Shown in pieces: positions 5,247 to 26,104 of a stretch of 49,325 bases of DNA. Location of the stretch: NCBI GenBank assembly GCA_036277075.1, contig DASUNQ010000108.1, forward strand, positions 1 through 49,325. Reading direction: 5' to 3'. Both the position numbers and the translations under genes were made by a program. This DNA is from Thermoanaerobaculia bacterium. Its GTDB lineage: Bacteria > Acidobacteriota > Thermoanaerobaculia > Multivoradales > UBA5704. Within the stretch, counting starts at the first letter, position 1. Every line of letters starts with the position of its first letter. Under the pieces are notes generated by a model. That model was not told the DNA's origin and did no database searches. It saw nothing but the letters and a program-made list of their open reading frames with translations.

Positions 5247-5281
5247 CTGCCCATCAGTCCTCCTTCGCTACGATTTGCGCC

Positions 5282-9532: not shown

Positions 9533-9538
9533 TTTCGG

Positions 9539-10972
9539 CTAGAGAGCTACTCTGCGGGAATGACTCCGTTTACCCTCGTTCCGGCTAGGATCCTCGGCTT
9601 CCTGCGCTAAGAGCTCATAGCACGCCGCATAGAGCCGATGCGTTAGCTCCTGTGATTCAATCGGGACAGGAAGACTAATCGCCTCTGCCTCCGTCACGAC
9701 GCCGGCCAACATCTTTATAAACTCCTCGACAAGCCGCTTTGGCGTCGTGGTCTCCGCTTCGTATGCGTCAGCGAAGAGAAGCTCTTCATAAGGTGGATTA
9801 GATAACATCGGATGTACCCATCGCTCGTATCTGATTGCTTGCTGCCCAAGCGCTACATCATTTTTAAGCAAGCGAATGCTCTGGCACGGTCCTTGATGTA
9901 GGTCGATGACGATCTGCGACATCCGTCCACCCTTTAGGTGGGCCCCAGGATTGGCGACGCTCGGACTTGGCCGGATAGTGCGCGCCGTATAGGAGGTGCG
10001 ATTGAAGGTATACGTGACGAGACCTAATGGCTTAAGCGCCTCGTCGAGCAAGTGCATCACAATTAGAAAATCTAACTCGGCGGCAGCAACGTTCTGCGGC
10101 AAAGCTTGATCGTGTCCGCTCTCAACTCGAAGGAGTTGGAAGAGCGGTCCGCTTGCGCCACTCGCGAGACAGTCCGCGACTCTGCAAACGTACGGACACT
10201 CGATCAAAAGAGTGGTGATGGCGCCCGGAGCAAGAGACAGGAACCACGCAATGACGTCTAGATAGTGATAGCTGGAAAATGATAGGGATCCACAGCCGTC
10301 AAGAAAGCCGTGAGCGCCTGAGGAACGATATTCGTCCGAAGTGAAGTGAACTCCCCCGGATACCGCGACGTTCAGGGACCGTACTGGGGCGCGTGTCGCA
10401 CCATACACAGAGGCGATCGCCGACGCGGCGAGAGCAAAGGGCGCGAGGTTACGCCGCCGAAGAAGCGTGGCGGCACGGAAGTGGTTATTGCGCGCGCGAG
10501 CACCCCTGATTAGATCCAATAAGATGGTGAAGCGAGTGCTGATTTCGTTGGCTGCTGCGAGTTGAGAGGAGCAATTCTCGACGACCACGATGGGTTTGTC
10601 GCAAAGGAAGGAGACTGCATTCCGCGCCGCCCAGCTACAGTAGGTGAAATGGGCTATCGGGTCAGTGCAGACGATGAGGAGATCAAGATGATGTGTGGCG
10701 TGCACACTATCAAGTTGCGCCAAAGCCTCGCTGATACCGTGACGTGCATCAACAAACGTCGGGCGGTGCACTGCAATCATCTGTTCGACTTGAGAGTGCC
10801 CGCGAGCTGCCGCGATGGCTAACGGGTCGCTAAGTTCGGCGATCGCGACTACGCGGAGGGGAATACCGGCAGCAGCGAGCTCATTGATAGCGGGCGCATG
10901 GCAGCGCTCTCCCCAGACGCCGGCAGCTCCAGCGATGGCGATGTTGAAGCGGGGCAGATAGCCAGGATGCAT
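9539..10972 (-). CDS. Gfo/Idh/MocA-like NAD(P)-dependent oxidoreductase
   Basis: N-terminal Rossmann segment FNIAIAGAAGVWG and the family-typical CDKP (EKP-like) motif. Long C-terminal alpha/beta domain. Confidence 0.65.
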   Translation of the reverse strand: MHPGYLPRFNIAIAGAAGVWGERCHAPAINELAAAGIPLRVVAIAELSDPLAIAAARGHSQVEQMIAVHRPTFVDARHGISEALAQLDSVHATHHLDLLIVCTDPIAHFTYCSWAARNAVSFLCDKPIVVVENCSSQLAAANEISTRFTILLDLIRGARARNNHFRAATLLRRRNLAPFALAASAIASVYGATRAPVRSLNVAVSGGVHFTSDEYRSSGAHGFLDGCGSLSFSSYHYLDVIAWFLSLAPGAITTLLIECPYVCRVADCLASGASGPLFQLLRVESGHDQALPQNVAAAELDFLIVMHLLDEALKPLGLVTYTFNRTSYTARTIRPSPSVANPGAHLKGGRMSQIVIDLHQGPCQSIRLLKNDVALGQQAIRYERWVHPMLSNPPYEELLFADAYEAETTTPKRLVEEFIKMLAGVVTEAEAISLPVPIESQELTHRLYAACYELLAQEAEDPSRNEGKRSHSRRVAL

Positions 10973-11260
10973 TGGCAGAGTCCTCCGCTCGAGGCGGCAA
11001 CATGACTACCGTAGAATCGTAAGCGTCAAAGCTGCTGGCGATCGCCTGGCGCCTCTTCCTTCCCCGTCGCTTCAGTGAAGTCGCCTTCGTAACTGCCGAA
11101 GTATAAGCGGAGTCTTTGCAGGAGTGGGCGCCGGTCGGCGCCTGGACATCCGGGGATGGGGACCGTCGAGGTGCCGTGCATCGGCACCCACCTACTCGCG
11201 TAGGCGCTGAGCCTAGATGGCGTGCTCTTCGTAGGAGGCGGGCTGGCGTACGCTTCGACT

Positions 11261-11285
11261 AAACAAAGGACCCCGGATGGGGTCC
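11261..11285 (-). terminator. Rho-independent terminator of the SymE-like gene
   Basis: On the minus strand GGACCCC-ATCC-GGGGTCC (7-bp perfect stem) is followed by TTTGTTT. The stem overlaps the stop codon. Confidence 0.7.
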
Positions 11286-11884
11286 TATAAGGATGCTAGC
11301 TCTCCGGCGATTGCCGAGGCTGGTGGAAGCGTCAGCTCGAGCTGATCGGAAAGAGGTGCAATGCCGGCTCTATGTAGGCGTGCCGTCTCCATCCGCGCCC
11401 GCTCTCGCCAGAGCTCCCGCTCCAGCTCTTCCTCGGTGAGCTTGGCTACCGCGGCGAGTGAGTCAATCGCAGGGGCGAGACAGTCGGCGACGATGCACTC
11501 GATAGCGCCGAGGATCTCGGCGGCCAAATCCGGCGCCATCTCCTCCTCGAGCGTGCCGTCGTGCAGCTCCGGCACTGGCAGGCCGTCGTGGACTTCATTG
11601 AGGGCCCGCACGATGCCTTCCAGCTTCTCGGCGAGGGCGCCGAGGACTTCCTGTGCTTCGGGCACGGAGTAGTTCGTCTTCGGCGTGCGGCCGGTAAGGG
11701 TCAGCGACAAGGTGCCCAGGACGACGTCGACCGCCATCTTCTGCCCTGTGCCGAACCCTGCTCGTGCGAGCCAGTGACCCCGAAGGCGGATCATGGGGAC
11801 CGTGGCCTCCGGGCCGCCTGAGCGAGCCCACTTGATCTCCCGGTGAACGCCGCAGAGACCGACCGTCAGAGTCTTTCGCTTCAT
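11285..11884 (-). CDS. SymE/AbrB-fold domain protein with an acidic helical C-terminal extension
   Basis: ORF 11285..12091. The ATG at 11884 follows GGAGG. IRLRGHWLARAGFGTGQKMAVDVVLGTLSL matches the SymE-toxin/SpoVT-AbrB swapped-hairpin pattern. The C-terminal roughly 120 aa are Glu/Leu/Ala-rich. Confidence 0.65.
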   Translation of the reverse strand: MKRKTLTVGLCGVHREIKWARSGGPEATVPMIRLRGHWLARAGFGTGQKMAVDVVLGTLSLTLTGRTPKTNYSVPEAQEVLGALAEKLEGIVRALNEVHDGLPVPELHDGTLEEEMAPDLAAEILGAIECIVADCLAPAIDSLAAVAKLTEEELERELWRERARMETARLHRAGIAPLSDQLELTLPPASAIAGELASL

Positions 11885-12353
11885 GCGTTCCTCCAAGTAG
11901 AAGTGCCGGGCCACCGGGCGCATGCCTGCGGCAATTGCCGCGGCGGCCCGGTGTTCCCTTCCTCGCGGGTCGTGCGTTGTCGCGTCCGTCCTAGATCTCC
12001 GCACCTCCGCTCTAGTAATCCTCGGCGGATTCATTCCGCCGGGAACGTGAAAAGGTCTCGCACCCGCGAGGATGCGAGGGTGACTGCTCAAGTTGGGGGG
12101 AGAAGGCGTGAAAGTGCTATCTGGAGACCAGCGTAGACGGGGAGCTTAGGTCTGGATAGACGGCGGAACCTGCCGAGGTCGGCGCACTTGTTACACAGGA
12201 CTGCTCGTCACCAGTTCTGTCGGTAGTCGGCCTGCTCTGGGGGTAGAATGGATAAATGAGGAGCGCGTTCTCTGGTATGAACCTTCACCCGCTCGATCGA
12301 CTGGAGGTCGTGCTCTGCCATCGGGAGTTGTAGGGCGGCCTTTCGGAGGCGGC

Positions 12354-14717
12354 ATGCCTGCCTCTGACTGCAACCTATCGTTTGAGGGGGCGCTGGCCCG
12401 CGTCGTATTGCGGGACGGCCTTGAGCGGGTCCGCCTCTGTCCTCCCGATCTGGTACTGGCCGATCTCGCTCGCCGTCTTGCTCTCTCTCAAGGCTCGGCT
12501 GTGCTCGCACGCGTGGAGATCCCGCGAGGCGCTCACGATCTCGCTGTGGCGCTCGCAATGGAGGCCCAACTGGCACGCCTGCGGGACCGCAACGAGGCCC
12601 GCTCGACAGCCGTGACGGGCTCCATCATCGTCGTCGGTACTGATACGGCAGTTCAAGCCCGACTCGGCAAGGTCTCGGTTCAGGGAATCTCGCTCGACAA
12701 AGGCCTCCGCGTGGGTCGGATTCGGGGCGACGGTCGCATCGTTCTGCCTGGTTGCGATCCCCTAAGGTTCCAGCCAGGGCGAGGCGCGCTCTTGTACCTC
12801 AACACGCGTGTCGGCTGGCCTCGCCTGCCGGGCGAGCGGGACGGTCTCGTGTTGATCGACCGGACTTCGTTCGCCGCTCTTGACCTCCTAGACGGGGCGC
12901 TTCGATGGGCACGGGAGCACGGCGCACGGCACATCCTCGTGCTCCATGACCAAGGGGACATGGAAGCACGACAGCCTGCCGACCTGGCATGGACCCTTGA
13001 CTGCGCCACGCTTGCGGCTCTAGACGCGCCGGCCTGGGCGGTCCGTGATCGCCTGCCTGCATCCGGTCTTACTCTTATACGGCTCGTGGCAGGGCAAGCT
13101 CCCAGGATAGGCATCGCGCACGTTGGTGCGTCGGTTATCGAGACGTTATCTTCCTCGATTCACGGGCATATTGTCGCCGCGCGGCGAATTGCTAACCGGC
13201 TGCCGTACCCGCTCTTTGCCGCTGCGCGTTTGCTCGGGACCGCCAACGCGCTAGGAGGGCAGGTGAGGACGCACGATCAAACAGCCGCGCTCATGCCCCG
13301 CGCCCAACCACTGGGTGACCTCGCGCGCGCTGTGGAAGGTGGCCACAATCGCCTTGAGGGCTCCTGGGCCGGGTACCGGGAGACTCGCTATGCGGCTCTC
13401 CAAGCCGATGTCACACGCCTTTTCTCTGCACTGGACGTGGCAAATCCAAAATTCGAGGCTTTGGTGTTTCTGCTCGACGACTTGCGCCGCAGGCAGATCC
13501 CGCCGGCTGTAGTGGTCCGGGCGTCGGATGATGCTGCCGCATTAGCCCTCGAGGAAGATCTGTTCGAGTTCGATGCTGATCTGGCCGAGGGGGTCCATGT
13601 TGTGTCCTTGCGCCAGCGTCTCCCCTGGGCGGCCAACGGGATCGTTGAGGTCCTTACCGGTCTACCGCCGCCTTGGCGGCGGGACGCGCTCTGGTCAGGT
13701 GAGGCCCGGGAGCGGATCGTCGTCGCATACGGTTGGGAGGCCGCCGTGCTGCAGCGTGTTGCTGAGGAGGAGTCGGCGCGGGTTCGCGACCGAATACCGC
13801 CAGCCCTCGCCGTCACCGCTTCGTCCGTCACTAGGCCAACGTCCATACCGACCGTGTTTCGGCGCGAGCAGCGGGCGACGCCCGGCGACGCTACATTTCG
13901 CACTTTCGATCTCGACCTCACCGAGGTCATCGGTGACTTGGAGCCGGAACCCTACGTGGCGGTGCGAACCGATTCCCGCGGGAGGAGCACATGGCCGGTC
14001 CTGGTCCGTCCAGTGACGCTCTCGCCTGATGGAGCAGTCTGGTTGGTACCGGAGGAGGTGGATGTCGAGGTCCTGCTCGGCGACAGGTTTCGTCATCTGC
14101 GCGCGGCTCACCTGAAGCACGGAGACAACGTAATCGTCCCGCGTGGCTCCGGGCGTGAATCGCTCTTCGCTCGTGCGCTCGCGGTGGTCAAGGGGCAAGG
14201 GGCATACGTTGACGTCGAATTCATACTCGGCCGCTGGAGACGGGCTTGTCGCGCGCTGCTCAAGAAGGCTGGAACACCTCAACGAGCTCGGCGCATGCTC
14301 ACCGATGAGAGCGCGACAACATCCACGCAGCTAGAGGCATGGGCCGACGGCACAACGCTGGCGCCCAATGACTGTGAGGACATGGCCAGAGTCGCACGCC
14401 TCGCCGGGGACGAGTGGCTCCTTCAAAACTGGAAACGGGTGGCCACGCTGGTCCGGCAGGTCCGTGGCAGCCACATCAGCCTCGGTCATACGATCTCAGG
14501 CGCTATGCGTGAGACGGTTGCTGGCCGCGGGCCGAATCTCGACAGGTTGGCCGATCTGCTCGGCGTGGATGCCGCGGCGATCCTCGACGAGTTTGACGCG
14601 CGTATCGTCGAGTCTGTCTCTGATCCGATCTGTGTTCCGGCCGCCGTGGCGGGCGCGGTCGTTCCAGCCGGCTCGTTGCTGGTCAACATCTGCGAAATCG
14701 AACCAGGGGGCCCATAG
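12354..14717 (+). CDS. Large uncharacterised protein, first gene of the DISARM-like operon
   Basis: 787-aa ORF with coding-like composition. Its stop TAG (14715-14717) abuts the ATG of the helicase gene (TAGATG). I recognised no Walker A, PLD or methylase motif. Confidence 0.7.
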   Translation: MPASDCNLSFEGALARVVLRDGLERVRLCPPDLVLADLARRLALSQGSAVLARVEIPRGAHDLAVALAMEAQLARLRDRNEARSTAVTGSIIVVGTDTAVQARLGKVSVQGISLDKGLRVGRIRGDGRIVLPGCDPLRFQPGRGALLYLNTRVGWPRLPGERDGLVLIDRTSFAALDLLDGALRWAREHGARHILVLHDQGDMEARQPADLAWTLDCATLAALDAPAWAVRDRLPASGLTLIRLVAGQAPRIGIAHVGASVIETLSSSIHGHIVAARRIANRLPYPLFAAARLLGTANALGGQVRTHDQTAALMPRAQPLGDLARAVEGGHNRLEGSWAGYRETRYAALQADVTRLFSALDVANPKFEALVFLLDDLRRRQIPPAVVVRASDDAAALALEEDLFEFDADLAEGVHVVSLRQRLPWAANGIVEVLTGLPPPWRRDALWSGEARERIVVAYGWEAAVLQRVAEEESARVRDRIPPALAVTASSVTRPTSIPTVFRREQRATPGDATFRTFDLDLTEVIGDLEPEPYVAVRTDSRGRSTWPVLVRPVTLSPDGAVWLVPEEVDVEVLLGDRFRHLRAAHLKHGDNVIVPRGSGRESLFARALAVVKGQGAYVDVEFILGRWRRACRALLKKAGTPQRARRMLTDESATTSTQLEAWADGTTLAPNDCEDMARVARLAGDEWLLQNWKRVATLVRQVRGSHISLGHTISGAMRETVAGRGPNLDRLADLLGVDAAAILDEFDARIVESVSDPICVPAAVAGAVVPAGSLLVNICEIEPGGP

Positions 14718-17700
14718 ATGTCCTCGATAGTCATCCCTCGAGCCGTCCCACCGATAGCGTCAGCACTCATCTCAGACGTTGTGGGGCAGGGCCAGCAAAA
14801 CAGGCTTGAGTGCTCGGTTCTCAGGGCTATTATCGCTCGTGTAGTTGAACGGCTGAGTAACCGTGCGGGTGAGCGGATGGCACCCCCATGGAATCCCGTT
14901 CAGCAGGTCCGGATCGGGGTACTGCGACCAGTCGAGGCTGACGAGGCCCGCGGCGCAGTTGACGGCTCAAGGATAGGTATCGACTTCGTCGCTCGCAGCA
15001 CCGAAGGCATCGAGTTACTAGACCTGGAGATCGATGTCTCCTTCGCGCTGTACCAGCCTCTCTGGCCCACACGCCTGGAGGTTCTCGAGGCCGCTCGGCG
15101 CGAAGGCGATGAAGAAGCTGGTGTCGGCAGCACCGGAGCCGCTCAAGGACGACACGACCTTAGGCTCCCGATCACGGAGGCGTGGCAGCGCTCGAACGTC
15201 TTCGCTACTGGGTTGCGCCTTGGGGTTCCCGTAAATGGTACGCATGCGGGCCCCGAACTCGCCAACGCCTTGGATGCTGCCGTCCGCGACGCAGTGAGCG
15301 TCCATTTTGGGCGCTCTGATGCGGCGCGACCGTTTGCTTCACCTGGTCGAACGGTGCCGCTATCAGCCCTAAACACTGATGAACGCTATGCGGAGGCATT
15401 GCGTGCACGCGTCGATGGCGCGTGGATGCCCCAGATCCCGGCCGCGCGCCTTCACGCTTTCGTCGAGGAAATGCCCAACGGTAACCTTCTGGTCTCCGTG
15501 TCTCTCGTGAATCAGACGCAGCCCCGGGAGGGAGATCGTCTTCAGGATCTGAACTTGTATGACGCTCGGATAGAAGCACGAGTGGTCGCAGGCGGACATT
15601 TGGAGCCACAACGATTTCACCTCGCTCCCGACGACTACCGGCAGGAAGATCTTGCAGAAATTATAGGCCACGGTCGCGGCTGCGTGGCAATTTCTGCGGC
15701 CGACGACGGCGTTGCGACCGAGACACTTCCATTGCACATTCAACGAGTAGTGAGACACCGCACTGAGCACCTGCCAGAACTCAGTTGGAGCAAACTCGAC
15801 GACGATCCATTCCCGATCCTATCGCAGGTTGAAGACGCGATGCGAGCATACCTACGAGAATGGGACGCCTTTCTGCCTGGGCTCGGCCCCGAGGCTCGGC
15901 TCGCTTCGGAGCGAGATCGCAACGATTTCGACGCGGAGACGAGGCGATTTGCCGGCGGTCGTGCTCTCTTGGGTGATGATGCGGAGCTCCTACGGGCATT
16001 CCGGCTCGCGAACCGCGTCTTTGCGCGCGCTGGTGCGGCCCGTGGGCATACGTCGTGGCGGCCGTTCCAGCTGGTGTACCTCATTGAACACTTGGCGGCA
16101 GTGGCGGCGCGCCGTCACCGGCACCGAGCCGATCTTCTGGAGGAGCTAAAATCTGTTGATGTGCTTTGGTTCCCAACGGGCGGAGGGAAAACGGAAGCCT
16201 ATTTAGGACTGATTGTGGTCGCTCTCTTTTACGACCGGTTCCGCGGCAAGGATCGTGGTACCACGGCACTGCTGCGCTTCCCGCTCCGCATGCTCTCCGC
16301 GCAACAACTTGATCGCGTTCTCCGCGTGCTGACGGTAGCCGATGATGTGCGCCACGCCGAGCGGATCGCTGGTGCACCATTCGAGCTCGGGTACTTAGTC
16401 GGTGGTGGCAACACTCCGAATGCACTCCGATACGAACAGGGGTGGTGGCCGGGTATGGCGAACGCCGAGCGGCTGACAGAGAGCGATCGGCGCCGTCATC
16501 GGCTCATCGCCGGATGTCCATTCTGCGGCGCCAAAGACGCAGTGCGATTGGCGGCGGACGCGATCCGATACCGGCTCCTACATAAGTGTACAGCTTGCAA
16601 TGCGGAGTTGCCGCTTCATGTCAGCGACGACGAGGTCTACCGCTATCAGCCAGCCGTCATCGTGTCCACGGTTGACAAAGTCGTTGGCCTGGCCCACTTC
16701 GGGGAGTTCACTTCATTCGCGCATGGGCCCGCCGGTCGCTGTCCCGATCACGGATACTTTGTCTTCGGCGGCTGTGGGGCCGAGGGCTGCACCCGGGCAG
16801 TCCGGGAGCTAGAGCGCGTGACTGGCTGGCATGATCCCGTTCCGACGCTAGTCATCCAGGATGAACTACACCTCGTGGCCGAAGAGCTGGGTGTGTTCGC
16901 TGCCCACTTTGAGTCTCTTCTCGCCGAGATTCAGTGTGCTGGCCCGTCTGGGCTGCCACCGAAAATACTGGCTGCCAGCGCTACCATTGAGGGATTCGAC
17001 GATCAGGTTAGACAAGTGTACGGGCGACGCCCTCGCCGTTTCCCGTCGCCAGGTTTTGAGCGAAGATGGAGTTTTTACACACTCGAGACACCCGATGTTC
17101 GCCGTGCCTTCCTCGGCGTCATGCCGACCGGCGGCGGCACCAGCCGGGTCGAGATCGCGGGCCGCATCCAGGTGGAGCTTGTTCGTGCCGTGCAGGATCT
17201 CGAGGATGATCCGTCGCCACTGCGTATCGACGCGGAGGCCGCGCTGGGCCGTGTCCCTTTGGATGACGAGCTACGTACACTGCTCTTCGACTACGAAGTC
17301 TCGCTTGGGTATGTCAACCGCCGTGCGGATGGCGCTCGCATGTCGGATGACCTGCGTTCTCTCGACCGGCAGCTGGAGGCAGAGAGCCAGGACGGGCTCC
17401 GCCACGAGTTGCTGACGGGTGATGTCCCGATCACGGAACTCGCGTCCGCGATCGCCCAGATCGAGCACGCACGGCCGACTGATCTGCGGCGAGAGCGCCT
17501 CCGCGCTCTCGTTGGCACATCGGTCCTCTCCCATGGTGTCGACCTCGAACGGCTAAATCTCATGACGATGACTGGGATGCCGGCAACGATCGCTGACTAC
17601 ATCCAGTCAACGAGCCGAGCCGGGCGAGCCCACGCGGGCCTGGTCGTGACGGTCTTCGATCATTTCGCGCTCCGCGAAGCCTCTACGTTCTCGCATTTTC

Positions 17701-18170
17701 TCTCGACCCATCTCTTCCTGGATCGCCTGGTCGAGCAGGTACCTGTGAACAAGTACGCCCGCTTGGCTATCGATCGGACCCTTTCGACAATCGTAATGGC
17801 ATTGTTATGGGATCTCGCCCGCGATCCTTTGCTGCGAGCGCCATCCAATGGTATTCGCTACACGCGCGATTTTCGACCTTGGTGGATCAGTGGGGCGGCT
17901 GATATTCAGCCGCGCCTCGCGGAGCGCTTACGCCGCGCGCTCCGATCAGCGGTCCCCGAGGTGGCTGATAGCGGGCTCGAGGCCCGGCTGGTCCGTTGGG
18001 GTGAAGAGCGCTGGGAAAGGCACGAGCTTCCTTCGCTTCAGTCCTTCCGAAGCCGGCTCGTCAAGGACTGCTTTGCCATGCGCGTCCTGACGAGCCTACG
18101 GGACGTTGACGAACCGGCTACATTCGGTGCCGATTCCCGCCATGGGCCGGCCTTCGAGGCCCTTCGCTGA
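14718..18170 (+). CDS. drmA: DrmA-like SF2 DExH helicase
   Basis: Motif I FPTGGGKTEAYLG, motif II LVIQDELH, motif VI YIQSTSRAGR. It sits immediately upstream of a DUF1998 gene, the DISARM core arrangement. Confidence 0.8.
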   Translation: MSSIVIPRAVPPIASALISDVVGQGQQNRLECSVLRAIIARVVERLSNRAGERMAPPWNPVQQVRIGVLRPVEADEARGAVDGSRIGIDFVARSTEGIELLDLEIDVSFALYQPLWPTRLEVLEAARREGDEEAGVGSTGAAQGRHDLRLPITEAWQRSNVFATGLRLGVPVNGTHAGPELANALDAAVRDAVSVHFGRSDAARPFASPGRTVPLSALNTDERYAEALRARVDGAWMPQIPAARLHAFVEEMPNGNLLVSVSLVNQTQPREGDRLQDLNLYDARIEARVVAGGHLEPQRFHLAPDDYRQEDLAEIIGHGRGCVAISAADDGVATETLPLHIQRVVRHRTEHLPELSWSKLDDDPFPILSQVEDAMRAYLREWDAFLPGLGPEARLASERDRNDFDAETRRFAGGRALLGDDAELLRAFRLANRVFARAGAARGHTSWRPFQLVYLIEHLAAVAARRHRHRADLLEELKSVDVLWFPTGGGKTEAYLGLIVVALFYDRFRGKDRGTTALLRFPLRMLSAQQLDRVLRVLTVADDVRHAERIAGAPFELGYLVGGGNTPNALRYEQGWWPGMANAERLTESDRRRHRLIAGCPFCGAKDAVRLAADAIRYRLLHKCTACNAELPLHVSDDEVYRYQPAVIVSTVDKVVGLAHFGEFTSFAHGPAGRCPDHGYFVFGGCGAEGCTRAVRELERVTGWHDPVPTLVIQDELHLVAEELGVFAAHFESLLAEIQCAGPSGLPPKILAASATIEGFDDQVRQVYGRRPRRFPSPGFERRWSFYTLETPDVRRAFLGVMPTGGGTSRVEIAGRIQVELVRAVQDLEDDPSPLRIDAEAALGRVPLDDELRTLLFDYEVSLGYVNRRADGARMSDDLRSLDRQLEAESQDGLRHELLTGDVPITELASAIAQIEHARPTDLRRERLRALVGTSVLSHGVDLERLNLMTMTGMPATIADYIQSTSRAGRAHAGLVVTVFDHFALREASTFSHFLSTHLFLDRLVEQVPVNKYARLAIDRTLSTIVMALLWDLARDPLLRAPSNGIRYTRDFRPWWISGAADIQPRLAERLRRALRSAVPEVADSGLEARLVRWGEERWERHELPSLQSFRSRLVKDCFAMRVLTSLRDVDEPATFGADSRHGPAFEALR

Positions 18171-18186
18171 CCTGGGAGAGGAAGTT

Positions 18187-20001
18187 ATGCAGCGAAGCCG
18201 ATCGCAAGTCATCTTCCGCCACCTACCCGGGGCGGTCTTTCACCACGACGAAGGACCCATCGTTCGAACGACGTTCGTTGACGGAACGCGGCTCGGTCCC
18301 GTTATCAACAAGGCTGTTCTTCTCGAGGAGGTCGATCGTCACTTGGAGCAATGGCCTGACGAACACCTGGCTGGGATCGTCCGACCATCTCGTGTTTCGG
18401 AGCGAGACTTCGTCGTCATAGAGCCAGAAGCTGTCTACTTCGAGGTCTGGCCGCTCCTTCTGCATTGTGAGGGGCGGTGCGGGCGGGCACGCCGCTACTT
18501 CCGACCTAGCCAACTCAGTGCCGATGTCGACGCTAACGGCCGTATTTCCTGCCACCATTGTGGGGGTCGTATGCGTCAACTCCGGTACTACGCGTGCCAT
18601 CAATGCGGGCGGTCGGAGCCCATGTTCACGCCGAAGTGCGACGCTTGCAATAGCTATGAGGACGTGGTCCTCGAGGACACTGGTTCATTCGAGACGTCGT
18701 ACTGGCGCTGCATACGGCACGGTTACCTCCGCGGCACTCGGTTCACGCCGTGCGACTGTGGAGAATTTCTGGCGGAGGGAAGCCATGGCCCCGCTTTTAT
18801 GCGGGCCTTTACGACACGTGACGCCCGGACGTACTATCCACACACAGTTACGTTTCTCAATCCGAAGTCGGCTGTTTACGACCGATTCCAAGTGCATCCG
18901 GCGCGCGCTCGTGTGGCACTGGCCTCCTATCTGGGCGAGGTGTCGAGTCTTCAGCGCGGCATGGAGCAAATCGATGGCGGGCGCGCCGGTAGTCGCTACA
19001 CGCCAGATGAATGGCAGCAGGCATGTAAGACTATTTACGCCGGGCTATCGCCAGAGGATCTGGAGATCATCCGTGATCGACGCGGCCCTGTGATAACAGG
19101 AGTCTTCGGCGCGCCCGATCCGGACCTTGCGCAGCGGCGCCTTGCCGAGACACGCGCGGTGCTAGAGCGCGCGGCTGTACACGATCAAGATCTTGTCGCC
19201 CGACGCACGCTGGAAGACGCCCGACAGGAGGCGGCGAGCCGGGGTGTCGTTTCGGAGGAGGGCCGGCTTTCCGAGACAGAGCGCTACGCCCGGCGCATGG
19301 GTATCGCCGCGGTCTCAGTGACTACGGCCTTTCCGGTCGCTCTTGCGGCCTACGGCTATACGAGAGTCCGTCGGGAGCCGGGCGAGTCTATCCTGCAGGG
19401 GTTTGATCGCCGACGTTACGGGAACCAGTATCCGATTTTCGCGGTGCCGACTGATACCGAAGCGCTGATCGTGACGCTTGCCGCCCGTGATGTGCTGGGC
19501 TGGCTTCGGGACGAGCACGATGGCGCGGGACCGGTACCAGTCGACGAGAAGGATGCCCGTCTCCAGGTCTTCTCGCTATTCGCAGCGGGTGCACAGGAGA
19601 TTGAGCCGGTAGGTACTCTAGTCCACTCCGTCTCGCACGCGCTGCTCCGATCGCTGGCCGACGGTAGAAGTGGCTTCGGCGAATCATCTCTCGCCGAGTG
19701 GCTCTCCCCCGCAACACTTACCTTCGGGATCTACGTCGCGACATTCCATTCGCACACGCTGGGTGCGCTCTGGACAGTGCTCCACCACTCCTGTCAGGAG
19801 TGGCTTGCTGGTGCTATCGATGGCGTGTGGACGTGCGACAACGACCCTCTCTGTCATCAGCGGCAGCCCCGAGCGTGTGAAAGATGCCTTTATCTCACCT
19901 TCGGTTGCCCGGACTTCAATGAAGACCTCTCGCGGACCGCGCCGATGAGCTTCTGGCGCGGTACAGCGAGGCGAGCGGATGCTTCGTCGGCGACGACCTG
20001 A
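18187..20001 (+). CDS. drmB: DUF1998 zinc-binding protein, DrmB-like
   Basis: ORF 18106..20001. ATG 18187 follows GGGAGAGGAAG and lies 17 nt after the helicase stop. Cys clusters CHHCGGRMRQLRYYACHQCG and the C-terminal CDNDPLCHQRQPRACERCLYLTFGCPDFNEDLSR match the DUF1998 signature. Confidence 0.8.
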   Translation: MQRSRSQVIFRHLPGAVFHHDEGPIVRTTFVDGTRLGPVINKAVLLEEVDRHLEQWPDEHLAGIVRPSRVSERDFVVIEPEAVYFEVWPLLLHCEGRCGRARRYFRPSQLSADVDANGRISCHHCGGRMRQLRYYACHQCGRSEPMFTPKCDACNSYEDVVLEDTGSFETSYWRCIRHGYLRGTRFTPCDCGEFLAEGSHGPAFMRAFTTRDARTYYPHTVTFLNPKSAVYDRFQVHPARARVALASYLGEVSSLQRGMEQIDGGRAGSRYTPDEWQQACKTIYAGLSPEDLEIIRDRRGPVITGVFGAPDPDLAQRRLAETRAVLERAAVHDQDLVARRTLEDARQEAASRGVVSEEGRLSETERYARRMGIAAVSVTTAFPVALAAYGYTRVRREPGESILQGFDRRRYGNQYPIFAVPTDTEALIVTLAARDVLGWLRDEHDGAGPVPVDEKDARLQVFSLFAAGAQEIEPVGTLVHSVSHALLRSLADGRSGFGESSLAEWLSPATLTFGIYVATFHSHTLGALWTVLHHSCQEWLAGAIDGVWTCDNDPLCHQRQPRACERCLYLTFGCPDFNEDLSRTAPMSFWRGTARRADASSATT

Positions 20002-20010
20002 CTCTTGGCC

Positions 20011-21969
20011 ATGCGAGACCGTCGCCGGATCTGCACTATGAGCCAGACTCCGGAACCTTTGACCGCCGGCGTGATTTTGGGTCTGGGCAGTCCGCTTCGG
20101 CACCTAGATATCTCGGCAGTTTCCGCGGCAGCAACGAATGAGGTTGGGCGACGGGAGCGACATCTGCCGACCGTGTCGGTCTTCCGTTGGTGGGCACGAC
20201 GCACATCCGCTGTCTCGGGTGCGGTACTCGATGCGGTCGCTCGCGACCTCGGCCCGCGCCTCCGGGTCGCCGATCCGTTCGCCGGCGGCGGGACCGTAGC
20301 GCTGCAAGCCCTTCTTCGCGGTCATTGGGTTCACGCGCAGGACATCGATCCGTGGGCGGCGGAAGGAATCGCGGCGGCGCTCAGTCTTCCGGCTCCGGAG
20401 GCGATCCATGCTGCGGGTGACCGCTTACGCTCGGCCGTCGCGGGGCTTCTCGATCGCGCCTATGGCACTTCCTTTGACGGCGGCGCTAGCGCATGGATTA
20501 CCCATACCCTCCGTGTAGCCGTGGGAACGTGCCCTCGATGCGACAACGAAGCTCGGCTCTTCCCATATGCGACCCTTTCCCGATTCCAACGGGTGGAAGC
20601 GGTGGGCAAGGACGAGCGCGCGTGGCTAGCGTGCCGGTACGGGCACGTTCACGGGGGTGTCCTGAATCAGCTTCGCAGCTGTCCCGAATGCAGTGACCGG
20701 GTTGATCCGGCCGCTGTCTACACTTCTGGCCGCCAGTTTGCGTGTCACGCTTGCGGTCAGACGGCGACACTCGCCTTATGGGCCCGAGACGGCTTTCGAT
20801 GGGAAGTGGTCTTGGTCGAGAGGGCGGATGGGGTCCGGCGCGAGATCTCAATTCCGCGAAGCGACGAGATCCAACGCGCCGAGTCCGACTGGATGCCCTG
20901 TCGCGAACTTCCACAAATTGAAGCGGGAAGAGAAAGCACCGTTCTGCTCCGACATGGCTTCCGGCACTGGCACGACCTCTATCCACGGCGCCAGCGGGTC
21001 ATCCTTGAGGCGGTCTTCGCTGCGATCCCAGAGGCTGCTGCGGGAGATCCGACCTTAGTGCGCCTACTCCATATAGTCGTTGCTGGTGCCGCGGAGATGG
21101 CCGGTCACATGTCCCGATGGGATCGGCGATACCTCAAAGCATATGAAGCGATGGCTGGGCACAGGTTTAATCTGACTACGCTCGCGGCCGAGCCGAACGT
21201 CTGGGGCGTTGGACGGCGTGGGCGAGGGAGCATCTCACTCCGTATCGCAGCGGCGAAGCGAGCTGCTGAATGGCTCACTGCCTCTCGGTCGCCGATCGCC
21301 CTAGCGGGCCCCTTCAGCACGAGCGCCGATCGAGCCGCTGCCGACGCGGTCGATGCAGTAGTTGTCCATGGTTCCTCCGAGCGTATGCCGCTTCTCGATG
21401 GCTCGGTCGACCTTATCTGGACAGATCCGCCCTACCACGACGACGTGCAGTATCACGATCTCTCAGCACTATTCCGTGTGTGGCTTGGCCTCTGCAGCGT
21501 GGATAGCGAGGCCTCGGCCGTGGCGTCCGGTCCAACGGATAAGCGGTACGTCCAGGTGCTACGGCGCGTCTTCGCTGAGTGCCGACGGGTGCTCGCACCC
21601 CACGGTCGCCTCCTGCTCACCTACGCCAACAGGGACTCAACCGCCTGGATCGCGCTTTACGAAGCACTTCGTGATGCCGGGTTCCGTGCTCAGGGCTATG
21701 AGATCGTTCGTTCAGATGCGGAAACCGACTTCACAAAACGCCGCGGTCGGACCTGCAGCATGGATCTTGTTCTCGATCTGGTGCCCGCAGGCAACAACTC
21801 CGCTCAGCTCATCCACCGGCCCGCGTGCTCGCCAGCGTCTGGGGAAGGCGCTTTTCTAGCTGTTAGGGGTGAAGTGGCTCTTACGGCCATCTCCGACGTA
21901 CCGCCCGTGGGCTGGCGCGAGCGGCTACGAAGTGAGCAGACCGACCACTGGTCTCAGAAACCGCGATGA
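20011..21969 (+). CDS. N6-adenine DNA methyltransferase with Zn-ribbon inserts (COG1743/DUF1156-like)
   Basis: FRWWARRTS (DUF1156-like WWARR), AdoMet motif VADPFAGGGT, Zn ribbons CPRCDN...CPECSD...CHACG, catalytic LIWTDPPYHDD. Start ambiguous (TTG 20005, ATG 20011, ATG 20038). Confidence 0.8.
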   Translation: MRDRRRICTMSQTPEPLTAGVILGLGSPLRHLDISAVSAAATNEVGRRERHLPTVSVFRWWARRTSAVSGAVLDAVARDLGPRLRVADPFAGGGTVALQALLRGHWVHAQDIDPWAAEGIAAALSLPAPEAIHAAGDRLRSAVAGLLDRAYGTSFDGGASAWITHTLRVAVGTCPRCDNEARLFPYATLSRFQRVEAVGKDERAWLACRYGHVHGGVLNQLRSCPECSDRVDPAAVYTSGRQFACHACGQTATLALWARDGFRWEVVLVERADGVRREISIPRSDEIQRAESDWMPCRELPQIEAGRESTVLLRHGFRHWHDLYPRRQRVILEAVFAAIPEAAAGDPTLVRLLHIVVAGAAEMAGHMSRWDRRYLKAYEAMAGHRFNLTTLAAEPNVWGVGRRGRGSISLRIAAAKRAAEWLTASRSPIALAGPFSTSADRAAADAVDAVVVHGSSERMPLLDGSVDLIWTDPPYHDDVQYHDLSALFRVWLGLCSVDSEASAVASGPTDKRYVQVLRRVFAECRRVLAPHGRLLLTYANRDSTAWIALYEALRDAGFRAQGYEIVRSDAETDFTKRRGRTCSMDLVLDLVPAGNNSAQLIHRPACSPASGEGAFLAVRGEVALTAISDVPPVGWRERLRSEQTDHWSQKPR

Positions 21970-22023
21970 CGTAATGCCGCCGTGCTTCGAGAAGAGCGGA
22001 GAGGCTGCGTAGTTTGCAAAGCA

Positions 22024-22051
22024 CAACACCCCACCTAAAGGCGGGGTGTTG
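22024..22051. terminator. Bidirectional hairpin between the convergent methylase and recombinase genes
   Basis: AACACCCCACC-TAAA-GGCGGGGTGTT forms an 11-bp stem with one mismatch. Confidence 0.55.
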
Positions 22052-22060
22052 GTGAGAGTT

Positions 22061-23650
22061 CTACGACTGGTCACTGGTATCCTGGCGTAGAGCGAATGCA
22101 GAATTCTGCTTGATCCAGCTTTCGATCTCTTCAATGATGTGTCTCAACGCAGATTCTCTTTGCGAACTTGCCGACTGCGGCAGGTTTGTACCGCTTCGAC
22201 CTTCGGCCCGTTGAAGGTCACTAGGAGTATTTTTCGCATAGTCAGTGAGCGATACAAAGGGACGAAACAGCTCAACAGAGAGGTTTTTGCCGGTCACGAT
22301 ACGGTTCGACGTCGCAAGCTGGGCAAGTGCGCGTTTGTGGTCGGCTGTCGCCGTCTCGTAGCTTAACCAGGCCGCGTTTGCCAGTTCGACCACTTCTCGC
22401 ACCTCTTCCAGCTTCTTTTCGGCCTCGCTGCTTGGAAGTGCGAGCTTCTCTTCAAGGTCTCGCCGTTCAAGGTATAGGCTCGCCTTGCTCTTTTCGAGGA
22501 GTTCCTTCTCCAGCATGCCGTCGAGGTACGCGTCGACGAGGCGGTCAAGCAGGGATTGGATCTGTCCGAGCCGCAGGCGCCGCGCCTCTTGCTGCTCTTC
22601 CCATTCGCTGAGGAACCCCGCGCGCCGCTCTTCCATTCGCTGGAACAGGTACGCTAGTTGGTCGCTTGAGAGCATGAGGCGCCGAAGCTCTCGCTGGATA
22701 GTCTCATCCACGGCTTCTTCGCGCACGCACTTCGTCGGACATCCCTGAGTGTGGCAGCGGTAGTAGACGTGTCCCTTCTGGAGCTCGCCGCGGAGTAGCC
22801 TGCCGCAGTGGCCGCAGGAGAGCAAGCGCCGGAAGACGAATTCGTGTCGGATCACTTTCCGGTGCGTTCGCCCCTGGAGGCGATCCTGCACACGTCGAAA
22901 CAGAGCGACCGGAATGAGCGGCCGGTGTATGCCCGGGAACGTCTCGCCCGTCTTGCGCAAGCTGATGAGGCCGCAGTAGAAGGAATTGTTGAGGATAGTC
23001 GAGAGACCGTTGCGCGTCACCTTGTGTCGGTTGCGGTTCCGCAAGCCTCGCCGGTACATCTCGTCGGCGAGCGCCAGGAGGCTGAATTGGCCGGAGTCGT
23101 ACAGCTCGAATGTCTTTCGCACGTGCGGGGCGGTGTTTGCATCAGGCACCTTCGGCTTGCCCTTCCCGCAGTCGAGGTAGCCGAGCGGCGCCTGGAGCGG
23201 GTAGAGCCCCTGCTTCAGGCGTCCGTAGAAACCCTTGAGCGTTTCCTCCCGCAGGTTGCGGATGAAGTCCGCGGCGACAATGGCCTGAATGTCGGCAGCG
23301 AGCCGGCCGCCACGAGTATGGAGGTCAAGCGACTCGTTCACGAAGTGGACCGCAATCCCAGCGTCGATGAGCTCGCCGAGGTCTGCCCAGTCGCGGAGAT
23401 TCCTGGCGCTCCGGTCGATCTTGTGGATGACGAGCCCCTGTGCTTTACCCTGGCGCAACAGCCGGAGCATCTTGGTGAACTTTGGTCGGCCTCGCTTTGC
23501 GGCCGTCTTTGTCTCCTCGAACCACTCGATGATGGAGAGCCCATGGGTCCCGGCGTAGCGCGCGATGGCATCGTGCTGCTCCTCAGGCGACACGCCCTCT
23601 TCCTTCTGCTTGGGCGTTGAGACACGTATGTATGCGAAGCAACGCGTCAT
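22061..23650 (-). CDS. Large serine recombinase (second copy, divergent from the terminal one)
   Basis: N-terminal resolvase motif AYIRVSTPKQ, IHKIDRSARN, recombinase domain, zinc ribbon CGHCGRLLRGELQKGHVYYRCHTQGC, then a coiled-coil segment. Confidence 0.9.
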   Translation of the reverse strand: MTRCFAYIRVSTPKQKEEGVSPEEQHDAIARYAGTHGLSIIEWFEETKTAAKRGRPKFTKMLRLLRQGKAQGLVIHKIDRSARNLRDWADLGELIDAGIAVHFVNESLDLHTRGGRLAADIQAIVAADFIRNLREETLKGFYGRLKQGLYPLQAPLGYLDCGKGKPKVPDANTAPHVRKTFELYDSGQFSLLALADEMYRRGLRNRNRHKVTRNGLSTILNNSFYCGLISLRKTGETFPGIHRPLIPVALFRRVQDRLQGRTHRKVIRHEFVFRRLLSCGHCGRLLRGELQKGHVYYRCHTQGCPTKCVREEAVDETIQRELRRLMLSSDQLAYLFQRMEERRAGFLSEWEEQQEARRLRLGQIQSLLDRLVDAYLDGMLEKELLEKSKASLYLERRDLEEKLALPSSEAEKKLEEVREVVELANAAWLSYETATADHKRALAQLATSNRIVTGKNLSVELFRPFVSLTDYAKNTPSDLQRAEGRSGTNLPQSASSQRESALRHIIEEIESWIKQNSAFALRQDTSDQS

Positions 23651-23883
23651 ACGTGTGTGTCTCGATATTCACTTGTAAAGGATCGACCGTTATCTATGGT
23701 ACGAGCGGGCCTCTGCGCTGTCAAAGCACGGAAGCGCTCGTAGAGCTCTGGTTCAGACTTGAGGTGGTGGTAGATGTCTTCCACGAGATCGAGGTAATGA
23801 TCGAGAGTCTCTTCGATTTCTTTCTGTTCCTCTAGAGTTTGATTCGGGAAAAGATCATGAATTGTAATACGAAGCTTGTTCAT
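23647..23883 (-). CDS. Small acidic hypothetical protein overlapping the recombinase start (possible accessory/directionality factor)
   Basis: 78-aa ORF whose stop overlaps the LSR start codon by 4 nt. No recognisable motif. Confidence 0.4.
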   Translation of the reverse strand: MNKLRITIHDLFPNQTLEEQKEIEETLDHYLDLVEDIYHHLKSEPELYERFRALTAQRPARTIDNGRSFTSEYRDTHV

Positions 23884-23998
23884 CCAGAGGACGATACGCG
23901 TTCTCCTAGCGCACTCAAGGCTTCGTTTTCTGCCGGATGCCGGGCTCGGCAGGTTACGGCGACTTCCGCTGGATCATGGCGTCGGTACGCTGTGCTTC

Positions 23999-24613
23999 AT
24001 GACGCTACAGTTTCAACAAGCAGTGAACTTCCATCGCAATCTTCCTGAAGACCTTTGGTTTGCGCTGGAGGGTTGCGGGATACCGTCCGCGCTTATCCAT
24101 GCCCGCCTCATCGGGTGGGACGGAGAGCAAATCACCATCCCTGTTTTCTCGCGCGATCGAAAGGTCGTCGCCTTCGAGTACGCGAGCTTTGATGAGCAGG
24201 GCCGGCTCGCCTTGCTGCCTCAGGAGGGAGAGCGCTCTTACCTCTACGGCGAGCCCGTCATGAACCTCAGCCCGAGCGAGGTAGTGCTGACCGAGGGCGT
24301 AGTCGAGTCCTTGGTTCTCTCAAGCCAAGGCTTCAACGCCCTCTCCGCAACGGGAGACGGCTTGAGCTTCCGGGAAGAGTGGGCGTCGGCGCTCCGCAAA
24401 GCCCGGGGGTGCTTCATCTGCTTCAAGCGCCACGCCGAGAGTATCGGCTCGGCGCTCATTGTCCGCGACCTCGTTCCGGGCGCGCGGATTGTGACGCTGC
24501 CGCCAGAGGTCGGTCATGGCGGCGGGCTCTACGAGTTCTTCGTCGAGCTGGGGCAGTCACCAGCGGACTTCCGGGCGCTCCTCAGGCGCGCGGCCGATTC
24601 CCCCGATGCCTGA
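23999..24613 (+). CDS. Toprim-domain (primase-like) protein
   Basis: ORF 23876..24613, ATG 23999. VVLTEGVVESLVLSSQGFNALSATGDG resembles the Toprim E-G-x-x-D segment. Confidence 0.6.
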   Translation: MTLQFQQAVNFHRNLPEDLWFALEGCGIPSALIHARLIGWDGEQITIPVFSRDRKVVAFEYASFDEQGRLALLPQEGERSYLYGEPVMNLSPSEVVLTEGVVESLVLSSQGFNALSATGDGLSFREEWASALRKARGCFICFKRHAESIGSALIVRDLVPGARIVTLPPEVGHGGGLYEFFVELGQSPADFRALLRRAADSPDA

Positions 24614-25967
24614 CGACGCTCCAAAGAAGAGCCGGATACGGCCGGTGGTCTCCGCGGCGTTGCCCTCGGGCGAGCTCCTCGAGATGGTGTATGACCCGAC
24701 CGCTCTGGAGACGGGGTTCATCCTCGACGACGGCGCCGCCTGGCGAGCGGAGAAGCGAGTCGAGCTTTCAGGCGTCACTCTCGTGCCGTACTCGCCGGCG
24801 AATAACCTGCTCACCCATCGGGTGGTGCTCTTCCCATCTGCACCGGGGGAGTACGGTTCCGAGGAAGATCTCTTCCGCGATGTGCGCCGATTCATCCACC
24901 GCTACGTCGACCTCTCCGATTCTTTCGAGGAGGTCGCCGCCGCATACGTCCTCTTCTCCTGGGTCTACGACGCCTTCAACGAGGTGCCGTACCTGCGCGT
25001 GCGCGGCGACTACGGCTCCGGCAAGTCCCGCTTCCTCTTGACCGTCGGCTCCCTCTGCTACAAGCCGATCTTCGCTTCGGGCGCCTCGACCGTCTCGCCA
25101 ATCTTTCGCATCCTTGATGCCGTGCAAGGCACCCTGGTCATCGACGAAGGCGACTTCCGCGCCTCAGACGAAAAGGCCGAGATCGTGAAGATCCTCAACA
25201 ACGGCAATGCCCGCGGCTTTCCAGTGCTTCGCAGCGAGCAGACGCCGACCAAGGAGTTCAACCCGCGAGCGTTCCACGTCTTCGGCCCCAAGCTCGTGGC
25301 GACCAGGAATCTCTTCGATGATCGTGCGCTTGAGAGCCGCTGTCTTTCCGAAGACATGGGGACACGGCCGCTCCGGGCCGGCATCCCCATCAACCTGCCG
25401 GAGAGTTTCGAGGAGGAGGCGCGGGAGCTGCGCAACAAACTCCTCCTGTACAGGCTGCGCACCCGCAGCAGCCGGCGCCCGCTCGCCGAAGCATCGGTGC
25501 CGGCCGGTCTCGAGCCACGCCTCTCCCAGATCCTCTTGCCGCTTCTCGCGACCGTGCCGAGCGAGGAAACACGAGCGCGCCTCCTCTCGCTTGCCCGGCG
25601 CTCAGGCCAAGTGCTCTCGGCTGAGCGCGCCATGGCGATCGAGGCTGAGGTGCTCGCGGTTCTCTACGAACTGCGGCAGGAGAACATGCCGCTCTCGGTC
25701 GCCGAGATCACCAAGCGCTTCGCCGATCGGCACGGCGCCGAGTACCAGCATGTGGTGACTCCTCGCTGGATCGGCTCTGTCCTGCGCCGGAAGCTCATGC
25801 TCAACCCGCAGAAGCGCGGAGGCACCTTCGTCATCCCGGCCTCCGAGTACCCCAAGCTCGTTCGCCTCTTCGAGAAGTACAGCGTTCCGGGCGAGCGCCA
25901 GGACATTGGGGACGTTGGGGAGATCCCACGAGTGGAGGAGGACGGGACACCAAGCGTTGCAGCGTAA
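24606..25967 (+). CDS. P-loop NTPase, DUF3631-like (primase-associated replication protein)
   Basis: ATG 24606 overlaps the upstream stop (ATGCCTGA). Walker A GDYGSGKS, Walker B TLVIDEGD, followed by ILNNGNARG as in DUF3631-type proteins. Confidence 0.65.
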   Translation: MPDDAPKKSRIRPVVSAALPSGELLEMVYDPTALETGFILDDGAAWRAEKRVELSGVTLVPYSPANNLLTHRVVLFPSAPGEYGSEEDLFRDVRRFIHRYVDLSDSFEEVAAAYVLFSWVYDAFNEVPYLRVRGDYGSGKSRFLLTVGSLCYKPIFASGASTVSPIFRILDAVQGTLVIDEGDFRASDEKAEIVKILNNGNARGFPVLRSEQTPTKEFNPRAFHVFGPKLVATRNLFDDRALESRCLSEDMGTRPLRAGIPINLPESFEEEARELRNKLLLYRLRTRSSRRPLAEASVPAGLEPRLSQILLPLLATVPSEETRARLLSLARRSGQVLSAERAMAIEAEVLAVLYELRQENMPLSVAEITKRFADRHGAEYQHVVTPRWIGSVLRRKLMLNPQKRGGTFVIPASEYPKLVRLFEKYSVPGERQDIGDVGEIPRVEEDGTPSVAA

Positions 25968-26045
25968 GGCTTGCCGGCCCGCTACCCCCCGTAGAACGTC
26001 CCCAACATCCCCAACGTCCCCGGTTTCCCTTGACAAGCCTCCAGA

Positions 26046-26069
26046 AAACCTGCCGAGTCCGGCAGGTTT
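26046..26069 (+). terminator. Hairpin downstream of the P-loop gene
   Basis: AAACCTGCCG-AGTC-CGGCAGGTTT is a perfect 10-bp stem. The U-tract is weak (TTTC). Confidence 0.45.
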
Positions 26070-26082
26070 CTACGCCTTGCAT

Positions 26083-26097: not shown

Positions 26098-26104
26098 GTA
26101 AGTT

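Follow-up and report, generated by a model that had tools for sequence, protein, structure and literature searches.

A probable non-canonical DISARM-family operon with a zinc-ribbon methyltransferase and without drmC in a Thermoanaerobaculia bacterium

[quoted passage not shown] In the PADLOC definitions, type I comprises DrmA, DrmB, DrmC, DrmD and DrmMI, with DrmE prohibited, and type II comprises DrmA, DrmB, DrmC, DrmE as well as DrmMII. The reference class 1 system is that of Serratia sp. SCBI (drmD, drmMI, drmA, drmB, drmC) and the reference class 2 system that of Bacillus paralicheniformis 9945a (drmE, drmA, drmB, drmC, drmMII). The known host range of class 2 DISARM is Bacilli. What marks the DISARM branch, according to Bell et al., is that helicase and DUF1998 protein are encoded by separate genes. 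DrmA pairs with DrmB in a 1:1 complex that requires ATP hydrolysis and binds single-stranded DNA having a 5' overhang; this complex has been proposed to block replication physically or to recruit other nucleases (PMC9142583). In class 2, none of drmA, drmB and drmE can be spared and losing the methylase is harmful, while neither class 1 nor class 2 depends on drmC (bioRxiv 10.1101/2021.12.28.474362). Mixed compositions have been noted earlier, one example being a class II DISARM with an extra DrmD in Freyarchaeia (PMC11529989). Here we describe a four-gene operon at positions 12,354–21,969 of a 49,325-nucleotide (nt) stretch, hereafter the window, of contig DASUNQ010000108.1 from a Thermoanaerobaculia bacterium (assembly GCA_036277075.1). 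An original prediction made from the sequence alone had called it a minimal or hybrid DISARM variant. We consider it likely that the operon is a DISARM-family system of non-canonical composition, belonging to a class-2-like lineage with a methylase of its own and, in this copy, without a nuclease. It varies a known system and is no new kind of system.

The operon and its DrmE-DrmA-DrmB core

The operon and the region ahead of it consist of the following features, with protein lengths in amino acids (aa).

12092..12353, + strand: upstream intergenic region, the presumed operon promoter region and the sole gap longer than 16 nt ahead of the four genes
12354..14717, + strand: drmE-like gene, 787 aa, a distant DrmE homologue with a superfamily 2 (SF2)-helicase-like predicted fold lacking ATPase motifs
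14718..18170, + strand: drmA, 1150 aa, YprA-family SF2 helicase serving as motor for the DISARM core
18187..20001, + strand: drmB, 604 aa, the OB-CON-DUF1998 partner of DrmA, encoded by its own gene
20011..21969, + strand: DNA amino-methyltransferase gene, 652 aa (654 aa from TTG 20005), the presumed self-marking component

The co-directional open reading frames (ORFs) of the original prediction were all reproduced, as were the helicase, DUF1998 and methylase motifs quoted in it. The drmE stop codon abuts the drmA start as TAGATG (14715-14720), and the spacer between drmB and the methylase gene measures 3 nt if the latter starts at TTG 20005 and 9 nt if it starts at ATG 20011. The drmA-drmB spacer, previously given as 17 nt, counts 16 nt (18171-18186); drmB starts at ATG 18187 behind a GGGAGAGGAAG Shine-Dalgarno sequence, and the mechanical ORF begins at TTG 18106. 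Homologues were found for all four genes with E-values from 1e-24 down to 0, so chance is no concern for these ORFs. A promoter and terminator scan returned nothing above shuffled expectation, and no sigma-70-like site was found in 12092-12353, an absence that means little in a high-GC host.

The second and third genes encode the DISARM core, an identification of the original prediction that was borne out by PADLOC, by NCBIfam and by the Serratia DrmAB structure. DrmA matched PADLOC DrmA at 1.4e-106, and its top ten PADLOC matches were all DrmA models, with DruE reaching just 1e-4. The NCBIfam 'short' model DISARM_DrmAS matched at 9e-101, under its equivalog cut-off, and the helicase core matched the solved Serratia DrmA (PDB 7s9v_A) at 2.6e-51. 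Its motifs are intact (Walker A FPTGGGKTEAYLG, IQDELHLV and motif VI QSTSRAGR). The N-terminal ~440 aa do not align with Serratia (class-1) DrmA, so the class-1 trigger-loop mechanism cannot be assumed here. DrmB matched PADLOC DrmB at 5.3e-24 and NCBIfam DrmB_fam at 6.3e-10 (below cut-off). A single-sequence search of the PDB with DrmB gave nothing useful; only a profile of 12 DrmB orthologues (profile A3) reached the solved DrmB (PDB 7s9v_B, 3.7e-8), in the DUF1998 region. The C-terminal DUF1998-type four-cysteine cluster, CDNDPLCHQ...ACERCLY, is conserved.

The 787-aa protein, which had been taken as unknown, matches Pfam DrmE_C (PF24957) at 46.4 bits, above the gathering cut-off of 27 (E 4.9e-12), and the domain is present in 11 of its 12 close homologues. 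NCBIfam DrmE_fam covers residues 343-721 below cut-off (2.4e-7, 29 bits vs 80), and the PADLOC DrmE models match neither the window protein nor its 66%-identical relative in locus L008. On these domain matches the 787-aa protein is a distant DrmE homologue, and because of this assignment three of the four genes are class-2 components. The apparent size of its family depended on the method of search. A word-indexed search returned only 12 proteins, from the single sequence and from an alignment alike, and thereby made the family look rarer than an exhaustive profile search shows, in which 889 clusters (50% identity) pass E<=1e-3 and 83 pass E<=1e-30. By these counts the wider DrmE family is moderately large and the subfamily of the window small.

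A sequence search of the PDB with the DrmE-like protein gave nothing useful, and no published description of the DrmE fold was found in the literature searched. An AlphaFold2 model built from 11 sequences (mean predicted local distance difference test score, pLDDT, 73; predicted template modelling score, pTM, 0.66) was compared with PDB folds. The best matches were proteins of the SF2 helicase fold, namely RIG-I, MDA5, LGP2 and the helicase-like domain of XPF (E 1e-8 to 1e-5) with a template modelling (TM) score of ~0.3, a value expected where domain orientations differ. At the Walker A position the family carries a nearly invariant P-R-G (residues 57-59) and at the DExH position I-D-R-T (residues 168-171), lacking the DExH glutamate. 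Model and alignment together suggest a pseudo-helicase, that is, a two-lobed helicase-like scaffold unable to hydrolyse ATP, followed by the DrmE_C domain.

The closest relative, locus L008 on a 174-kb metagenome contig, has the order DrmE-DrmA-DrmB-PLDc_2-methyltransferase and shares 66-80% identity across the four common proteins (75% for DrmA). Protein lengths in the window and in L008 are nearly the same: 787/789 aa for DrmE, 1150/1154 for DrmA, 604/605 for DrmB and 652/635 for the methylase. Nei-Gojobori ratios of nonsynonymous to synonymous divergence (dN/dS) between the two loci were 0.14 for DrmE, 0.085 for DrmA, 0.079 for DrmB and 0.10 for the methylase; dS is saturated (1.6-2.5), so these values are rough. 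The low ratios indicate purifying selection on each of the four window genes.

The zinc-ribbon methyltransferase, the related lineage and drmC

The fourth gene product carries the motifs of an N6/N4 amino-methyltransferase, with motif I, DPFAGGG(T), at residues 88-94 and motif IV, TDPPYHDD, at residues 471-478, both invariant in 20 homologues. Pfam N6_N4_Mtase (PF01555) matched at 27.3 bits (cut-off 26.7) in the motif IV region only, and Cons_hypoth95 matched the motif I region. The ~380 residues between the two motifs hold four Cys/His pairs (CxxC/CxxxH) that are invariant in the 20 homologues, presumably forming a zinc-ribbon target-recognition domain. An AlphaFold2 model (pLDDT 82) has a Rossmann fold; a fold search of the PDB with it returned generic Rossmann methyltransferases at E ~1e-4, among them weak matches to CcrM and TTHA0409, and no specific relative. 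A sequence search of the PDB gave nothing useful. The protein has no match to PF13659 (DrmMI type) or PF00145 (DrmMII type), and no DrmMI model stood among the PADLOC matches listed for it (25 of 27 families); weak PADLOC and NCBIfam matches were to PglX, type II methyltransferases (MTase_II), HmaB, mad2 and DUF1156 methylases. By its motifs and profile matches, the enzyme is a DPPY DNA amino-methyltransferase that is neither DrmMI nor DrmMII. A DPPY rather than SPPY motif points to N6-methyladenine (m6A) rather than N4-methylcytosine (m4C), and the base modified by the window enzyme is probably m6A.

The relatives of the operon were collected by two routes. The contigs of the 12 close homologues found with the DrmE-like protein all show DrmE-like, DrmA and DrmB genes accompanied by a methylase of this family, 640-750 aa long. 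In addition, the methylase alignment was scanned against one genome per species, which gave 75 loci, followed by searches with iterative hidden Markov models (HMMs) built from the window proteins. Among the 75 methylase loci, 19 carry DISARM of the window type; their hosts are Nocardia, Mycolicibacterium/Mycolicibacter, Actinophytocola, Labedaea, many Acidimicrobiia, Solirubrobacterales and a Longimicrobiales metagenome-assembled genome (MAG). Further copies were found in Egibacter rhizosphaerae (L009) and on a Streptomyces cellulosae linear plasmid (L085). In all, ~27 loci, mostly from Actinomycetota, carry DrmE-DrmA-DrmB and a methyltransferase of the zinc-ribbon family. Judged from these gene sets, they form a conserved lineage with the usual form DrmE-DrmA-DrmB-DrmC(PLD)-methyltransferase, where PLD denotes a phospholipase D-like nuclease. 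No paper describing the lineage or its methylase was found in the literature searched; the supplementary tables of Ofir et al. 2018 may list such loci.

The methylase family itself comprises more than 650 clusters at 90% identity. Every related DISARM locus on a contig of sufficient length has a member, either adjacent or no more than ~2 kb away; its gene can lie upstream of the others (L001), downstream in the same orientation, or in convergent orientation (L002, L005, L006). In a tree of the methylases, enzymes linked to DISARM for the most part group separately from other family members. By this linkage and clustering the zinc-ribbon methylase belongs to the DISARM system of this lineage. 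A different module occupies ~50 of the 75 methylase loci. It consists of two proteins without assigned function (~395 and ~476 aa), an SNF2 helicase (~629 aa), an NOV_C/PDC-S36-like protein (~315 aa) and the methylase; examples are L016 4311-11944 (Catellatospora vulcania), L021, L033 and L047. The module had no PADLOC system-level match and no name was found for it in the libraries searched; it may be an undescribed restriction-modification-like defence system. None of 28 lineage loci carries a homologue of its SNF2 helicase.

Several features of individual relatives were noted in passing. A C5 methylase (PF00145, 5.5e-62) lies beside the zinc-ribbon methylase at L055 10010-13083 in a DrmC-less Candidatus Spongiisocius MAG, the only case among the 28 loci. 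CBASS-like genes (SMODS cyclase, bacterial HORMA, AAA ATPase) at L001 1-4700 lie within ~3 kb of DISARM, with a Fic-domain protein nearby; by gene content, these surroundings are a defence-island context. drmA, drmB or drmE is split or frameshifted in L004, L013, L034 and L051, and at L007 10001-11656 a truncated drmE lies beside IS21 and other transposases; these cases reflect either true decay or MAG assembly errors.

The absence of PLD and SNF2 genes from the operon, as originally predicted, was confirmed by Pfam, PADLOC, a DrmC HMM and a motif scan. Neither the four genes nor the scanned ORFs around them, which are a part of the window ORFs, gave a Pfam or PADLOC match for PLD or SNF2. A DrmC HMM built from the related loci had no match in any window ORF of >=90 aa, all of which were scanned. 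A regular-expression scan of window ORFs found no credible HxKxxxxD, its sole match lying in a spurious overlapping ORF at 4217-4795 (- strand). Similarly, PF00145 matched no scanned ORF and the C5 PCQ motif occurred in no window ORF.

In L008, drmC is a 264-aa PLDc_2 gene (9210-10004; 1.9e-15 against PADLOC DrmC) located between drmB and the methylase gene, whose start it overlaps by 4 nt. At the same junction the window has the 3-9-nt spacer. DrmC of >=200 aa is present in 18 of ~26 classifiable related loci, and the eight DrmC-minus loci are the window, L002, L013, L025, L031, L044, L055 and L001, the last of which keeps a 147-aa fragment. When full-length DrmA sequences were placed in a neighbour-joining tree, each DrmC-minus locus (window, L002, L031, L044, L055, and L001 with its fragment) stood beside DrmC-plus sisters; because of this scatter, we count at least five separate losses of drmC. 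The distribution points to drmC being ancestral in the lineage and cleanly lost in the window copy, a loss that fits the published dispensability of DrmC and its description in the literature as frequently absent. The minimal composition noted in the original prediction would reflect secondary loss, as 18 of ~26 relatives, L008 among them, carry DrmC.

Class assignment and alternative readings

Compared with the DISARM core, the window has DrmA, DrmB as a separate gene and a linked methylase, and lacks DrmC. From class 2 it shares the drmE-drmA-drmB order, the DrmE_C domain and the linked methylase; its DrmA scores best with the 'short' DrmA model, and its relatives have a PLD drmC right after drmB. 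It differs from class 2 in having the zinc-ribbon DPPY enzyme where class 2 has a C5 methylase of the DrmMII type (PF00145), in lacking drmC, in proteins that score far below the NCBIfam cut-offs, and in a lineage whose hosts are mostly Actinomycetota. With class 1 it shares a homologous DrmA core and DrmB DUF1998 region, adenine N6 methylation (probable for the window from its motif) and the dispensability of drmC, whereas neither the SNF2 DrmD of class 1, looked for in the operon and the neighbouring ORFs scanned, nor its DrmMI/PglX (PF13659) methylase is found in the window. The SNF2, NOV_C and methylase module draws on this methyltransferase family too (44-50% identity, invariant motifs identical), but lacks DrmA, DrmB and DrmE, and its partner genes are wholly different. 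The DUF1156 methyltransferases of MADS and of related systems, and BREX PglX, which like the window enzyme are dedicated methylases of defence systems, show weak similarity near the DPPY motif (DUF1156_antiphage 1.4e-13, PglX 1.5e-18, mad2 1.4e-11); the window scores far below their cut-offs (49.9 vs 1000 bits), and architecture and size are unlike. The profile searches, which the original prediction had set as the test that could refute it, did not place all four genes in one defined DISARM subtype, the methylase matching none of the defined DISARM methylases. The non-canonical character of the operon was therefore upheld; its description as a class 1/class 2 hybrid was not, as the methylase is not DrmMI and belongs to a separate zinc-ribbon family.

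We regard a true hybrid, in which recombination joined a class-1 adenine methylase to a DrmE-DrmA-DrmB core, as very improbable. The combination of DrmE, a class-2 component, with an amino-methyltransferase, the class-1 chemistry, would fit it, but the methylase has no PF13659 or Eco57I match and only a weak local PglX-like match near the catalytic motif. Its family's other partner is the SNF2 and NOV_C module and not class-1 DISARM, the DISARM-linked methylases mostly form their own branch, and the SNF2 helicase of that module occurs in none of the 28 loci. The recombinant was rejected on the ground that the methylase is not DrmMI. Equally remote is the reading of the operon as another YprA-helicase defence system, ARMADA-, Druantia- or Dpd-like. 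A DrmA-family helicase is indeed common to ARMADA, Druantia and Dpd, but in the window the helicase and DUF1998 proteins are unfused, the best PADLOC matches of the helicase are to DrmA, and no BrxHII/PglX pair, DruH-type gene, deazaguanine gene or fused nuclease was found. Such systems were rejected because drmA is not fused to drmB, because the operon encodes a DrmE_C domain, and because in relatives a DrmC-type PLD gene follows drmB.

The missing nuclease allows two further explanations. The operon could be a decaying remnant, in which PLD loss inactivated restriction and left a methylase with passenger genes heading to pseudogenisation. drmC is indeed absent here and present in most relatives, and copies within the lineage do decay, as in the split genes of L004, L013, L034 and L051 and the truncated drmE of L007. 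However, some split genes in MAGs may be assembly errors, none of the four window genes is truncated or has lost its motifs, their dN/dS is 0.08-0.14, DrmC-less but otherwise intact loci recur in at least five separate branches, and DrmC is experimentally dispensable in both studied classes. We therefore hold decay to be improbable. Better placed, though still on the unlikely side, is the explanation that a nuclease is needed and is supplied in trans, a PLD enzyme or another, by the host genome or the element, so that the operon alone is incomplete. Bravo et al. propose that DrmAB could draw on alternative PLD nucleases of the host, pointing to DrmC-like homologues in the test hosts (PMC9142583). 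Against it, the 49-kb window, the rest of the element included, has no credible PLD motif, no DrmC-HMM match and, in the ORFs scanned, no PLD match in Pfam. A replacement nuclease elsewhere on the element was accordingly discarded as a candidate, none being detected in the window scans.

We favour, as the likely reading, an intact DISARM-family defence operon whose ancestral set was a DrmE-like protein, DrmA, DrmB, DrmC and the zinc-ribbon methyltransferase, and from which drmC was cleanly lost. Several points weigh against it. NCBIfam scores of DrmA, DrmB and DrmE are far under the curated cut-offs, the PADLOC DrmE models are silent, and Pfam DUF1998 (PF09369) gave no DrmB match at E<=0.01; the sub-cut-off scores imply a long distance between the window proteins and the characterised systems, whose behaviour they may not share. 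The helicase-like fold proposed for DrmE comes from a medium-confidence model (pLDDT 73) with low TM-scores (~0.3). The dN/dS values span the whole divergence from L008 and not just the time after drmC loss, with dS saturated. For the lineage as a whole, defence activity, the methylated base with its motif, and DrmE's role are predictions.

If the operon is intact in this sense, the methylase would modify a specific motif in host DNA, with N6-methyladenine as the probable mark. The DrmA-DrmB complex would load on single-stranded ends of unmodified incoming DNA and, using ATP, block replication or circularisation of the invader DNA, and the DrmE-like protein, helicase-shaped without ATPase motifs, would be an indispensable subunit with an accessory or sensing role. 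Any breakdown of the invader would fall to nucleases encoded elsewhere in the host, with no dedicated nuclease required, and the operon would travel as cargo of an integrative element of ~34 kb that encodes serine recombinases. A bolder possibility, which we put forward tentatively and give rather less than even chances, is that the lineage constitutes a third, undescribed DISARM class. Such a class would have a zinc-ribbon methyltransferase family otherwise found only in the SNF2/NOV_C module, an ATPase-dead helicase-like DrmE sensor and an optional DrmC, with the window copy nuclease-free yet fully active.

The integrative element and implications for the DISARM family

The operon lies in a block of low GC content that bears the marks of an integrated element, with the following features.

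4801..39176, no strand: integrated element of ~34.4 kb with the operon as cargo, splitting a host metallo-beta-lactamase (MBL)-fold gene, low GC
22061-23650, - strand: large serine recombinase, directly downstream of the methylase gene
27018-28277, + strand: TraG/TrwB-like coupling ATPase (PADLOC mad8 5e-15)
34544-37561, + strand: TraG/TrwB-like coupling ATPase (PADLOC mad8 7.6e-22)
37596-39389, + strand: large serine recombinase at the right end of the element

GC content is 54-66% inside the block (~5-40 kb) vs 72-77% in the flanks. The split host gene encodes an MBL-fold hydrolase (Lactamase_B_2), of which residues 41-205 lie at 4304-4801 and residues 202-331 at 39176-39559; the left end of the element has an intact MBL paralogue of its own (5243-6238, 62-66% aa identity). 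The two TraG/TrwB-like ATPase genes share a 129-nt stretch with 73% identity. Their similarity to coupling ATPases suggests that the element is mobilisable or that they hold another ATPase-based function. Because of the split MBL gene, the GC block, the serine recombinases and the TraG/TrwB-like ATPases, we consider the operon to be cargo of an integrative, possibly mobilisable element.

Other genes and repeats of the region were recorded as well. A divergent ORF directly upstream of drmE (11285-12091, - strand) has a SymE_toxin (AbrB-fold) match at residues 97-128 (5.3e-8). The gene at 28423-30444 (+ strand) encodes a fusion of an N-terminal PPDK_N domain (ATP-grasp-like, 2e-53) and a C-terminal prenyltransferase/squalene-hopene-cyclase-like alpha-alpha toroid, and genes for MBL-fold and short-chain dehydrogenase proteins follow at 31936-33240; by their domains, the fusion and its neighbours may be a small biosynthetic or modification cassette. 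Just past the 3' MBL fragment, outside the element, are two arrays of a 42-nt unit, at 39583-39830 (5.9 copies) and 39834-40049 (5.1 copies) with 90-95% matches, which are mutually inverted and 79-85% complementary.

The lineage exposes a gap in detection. Current tools are keyed to the two DISARM classes: the PADLOC DrmE models miss its DrmE-like protein, the NCBIfam scores stay below cut-off, and PGAP labels on the Streptomyces plasmid copy are generic ('DNA methyltransferase', 'hypothetical', 'helicase-related', 'hypothetical', 'phospholipase D-like'). Since current models miss or under-score its proteins, the lineage is probably under-counted in Actinomycetota. The repeated, clean loss of drmC with the rest under purifying selection amounts to a natural experiment that supports the published and unexplained dispensability of the PLD nuclease, and matched pairs with and without drmC, such as L008 and the window, suit the study of nuclease-free phage blocking. 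The methylase family shared with the SNF2-based module indicates modular re-use of modification enzymes and brings to light a candidate undescribed defence system. These findings extend the known DISARM family, and current understanding is not overturned. If the lineage is truly a third class and its window copy nuclease-free yet fully active, DISARM immunity could act purely by replication-blocking helicase loading, without a dedicated effector nuclease.

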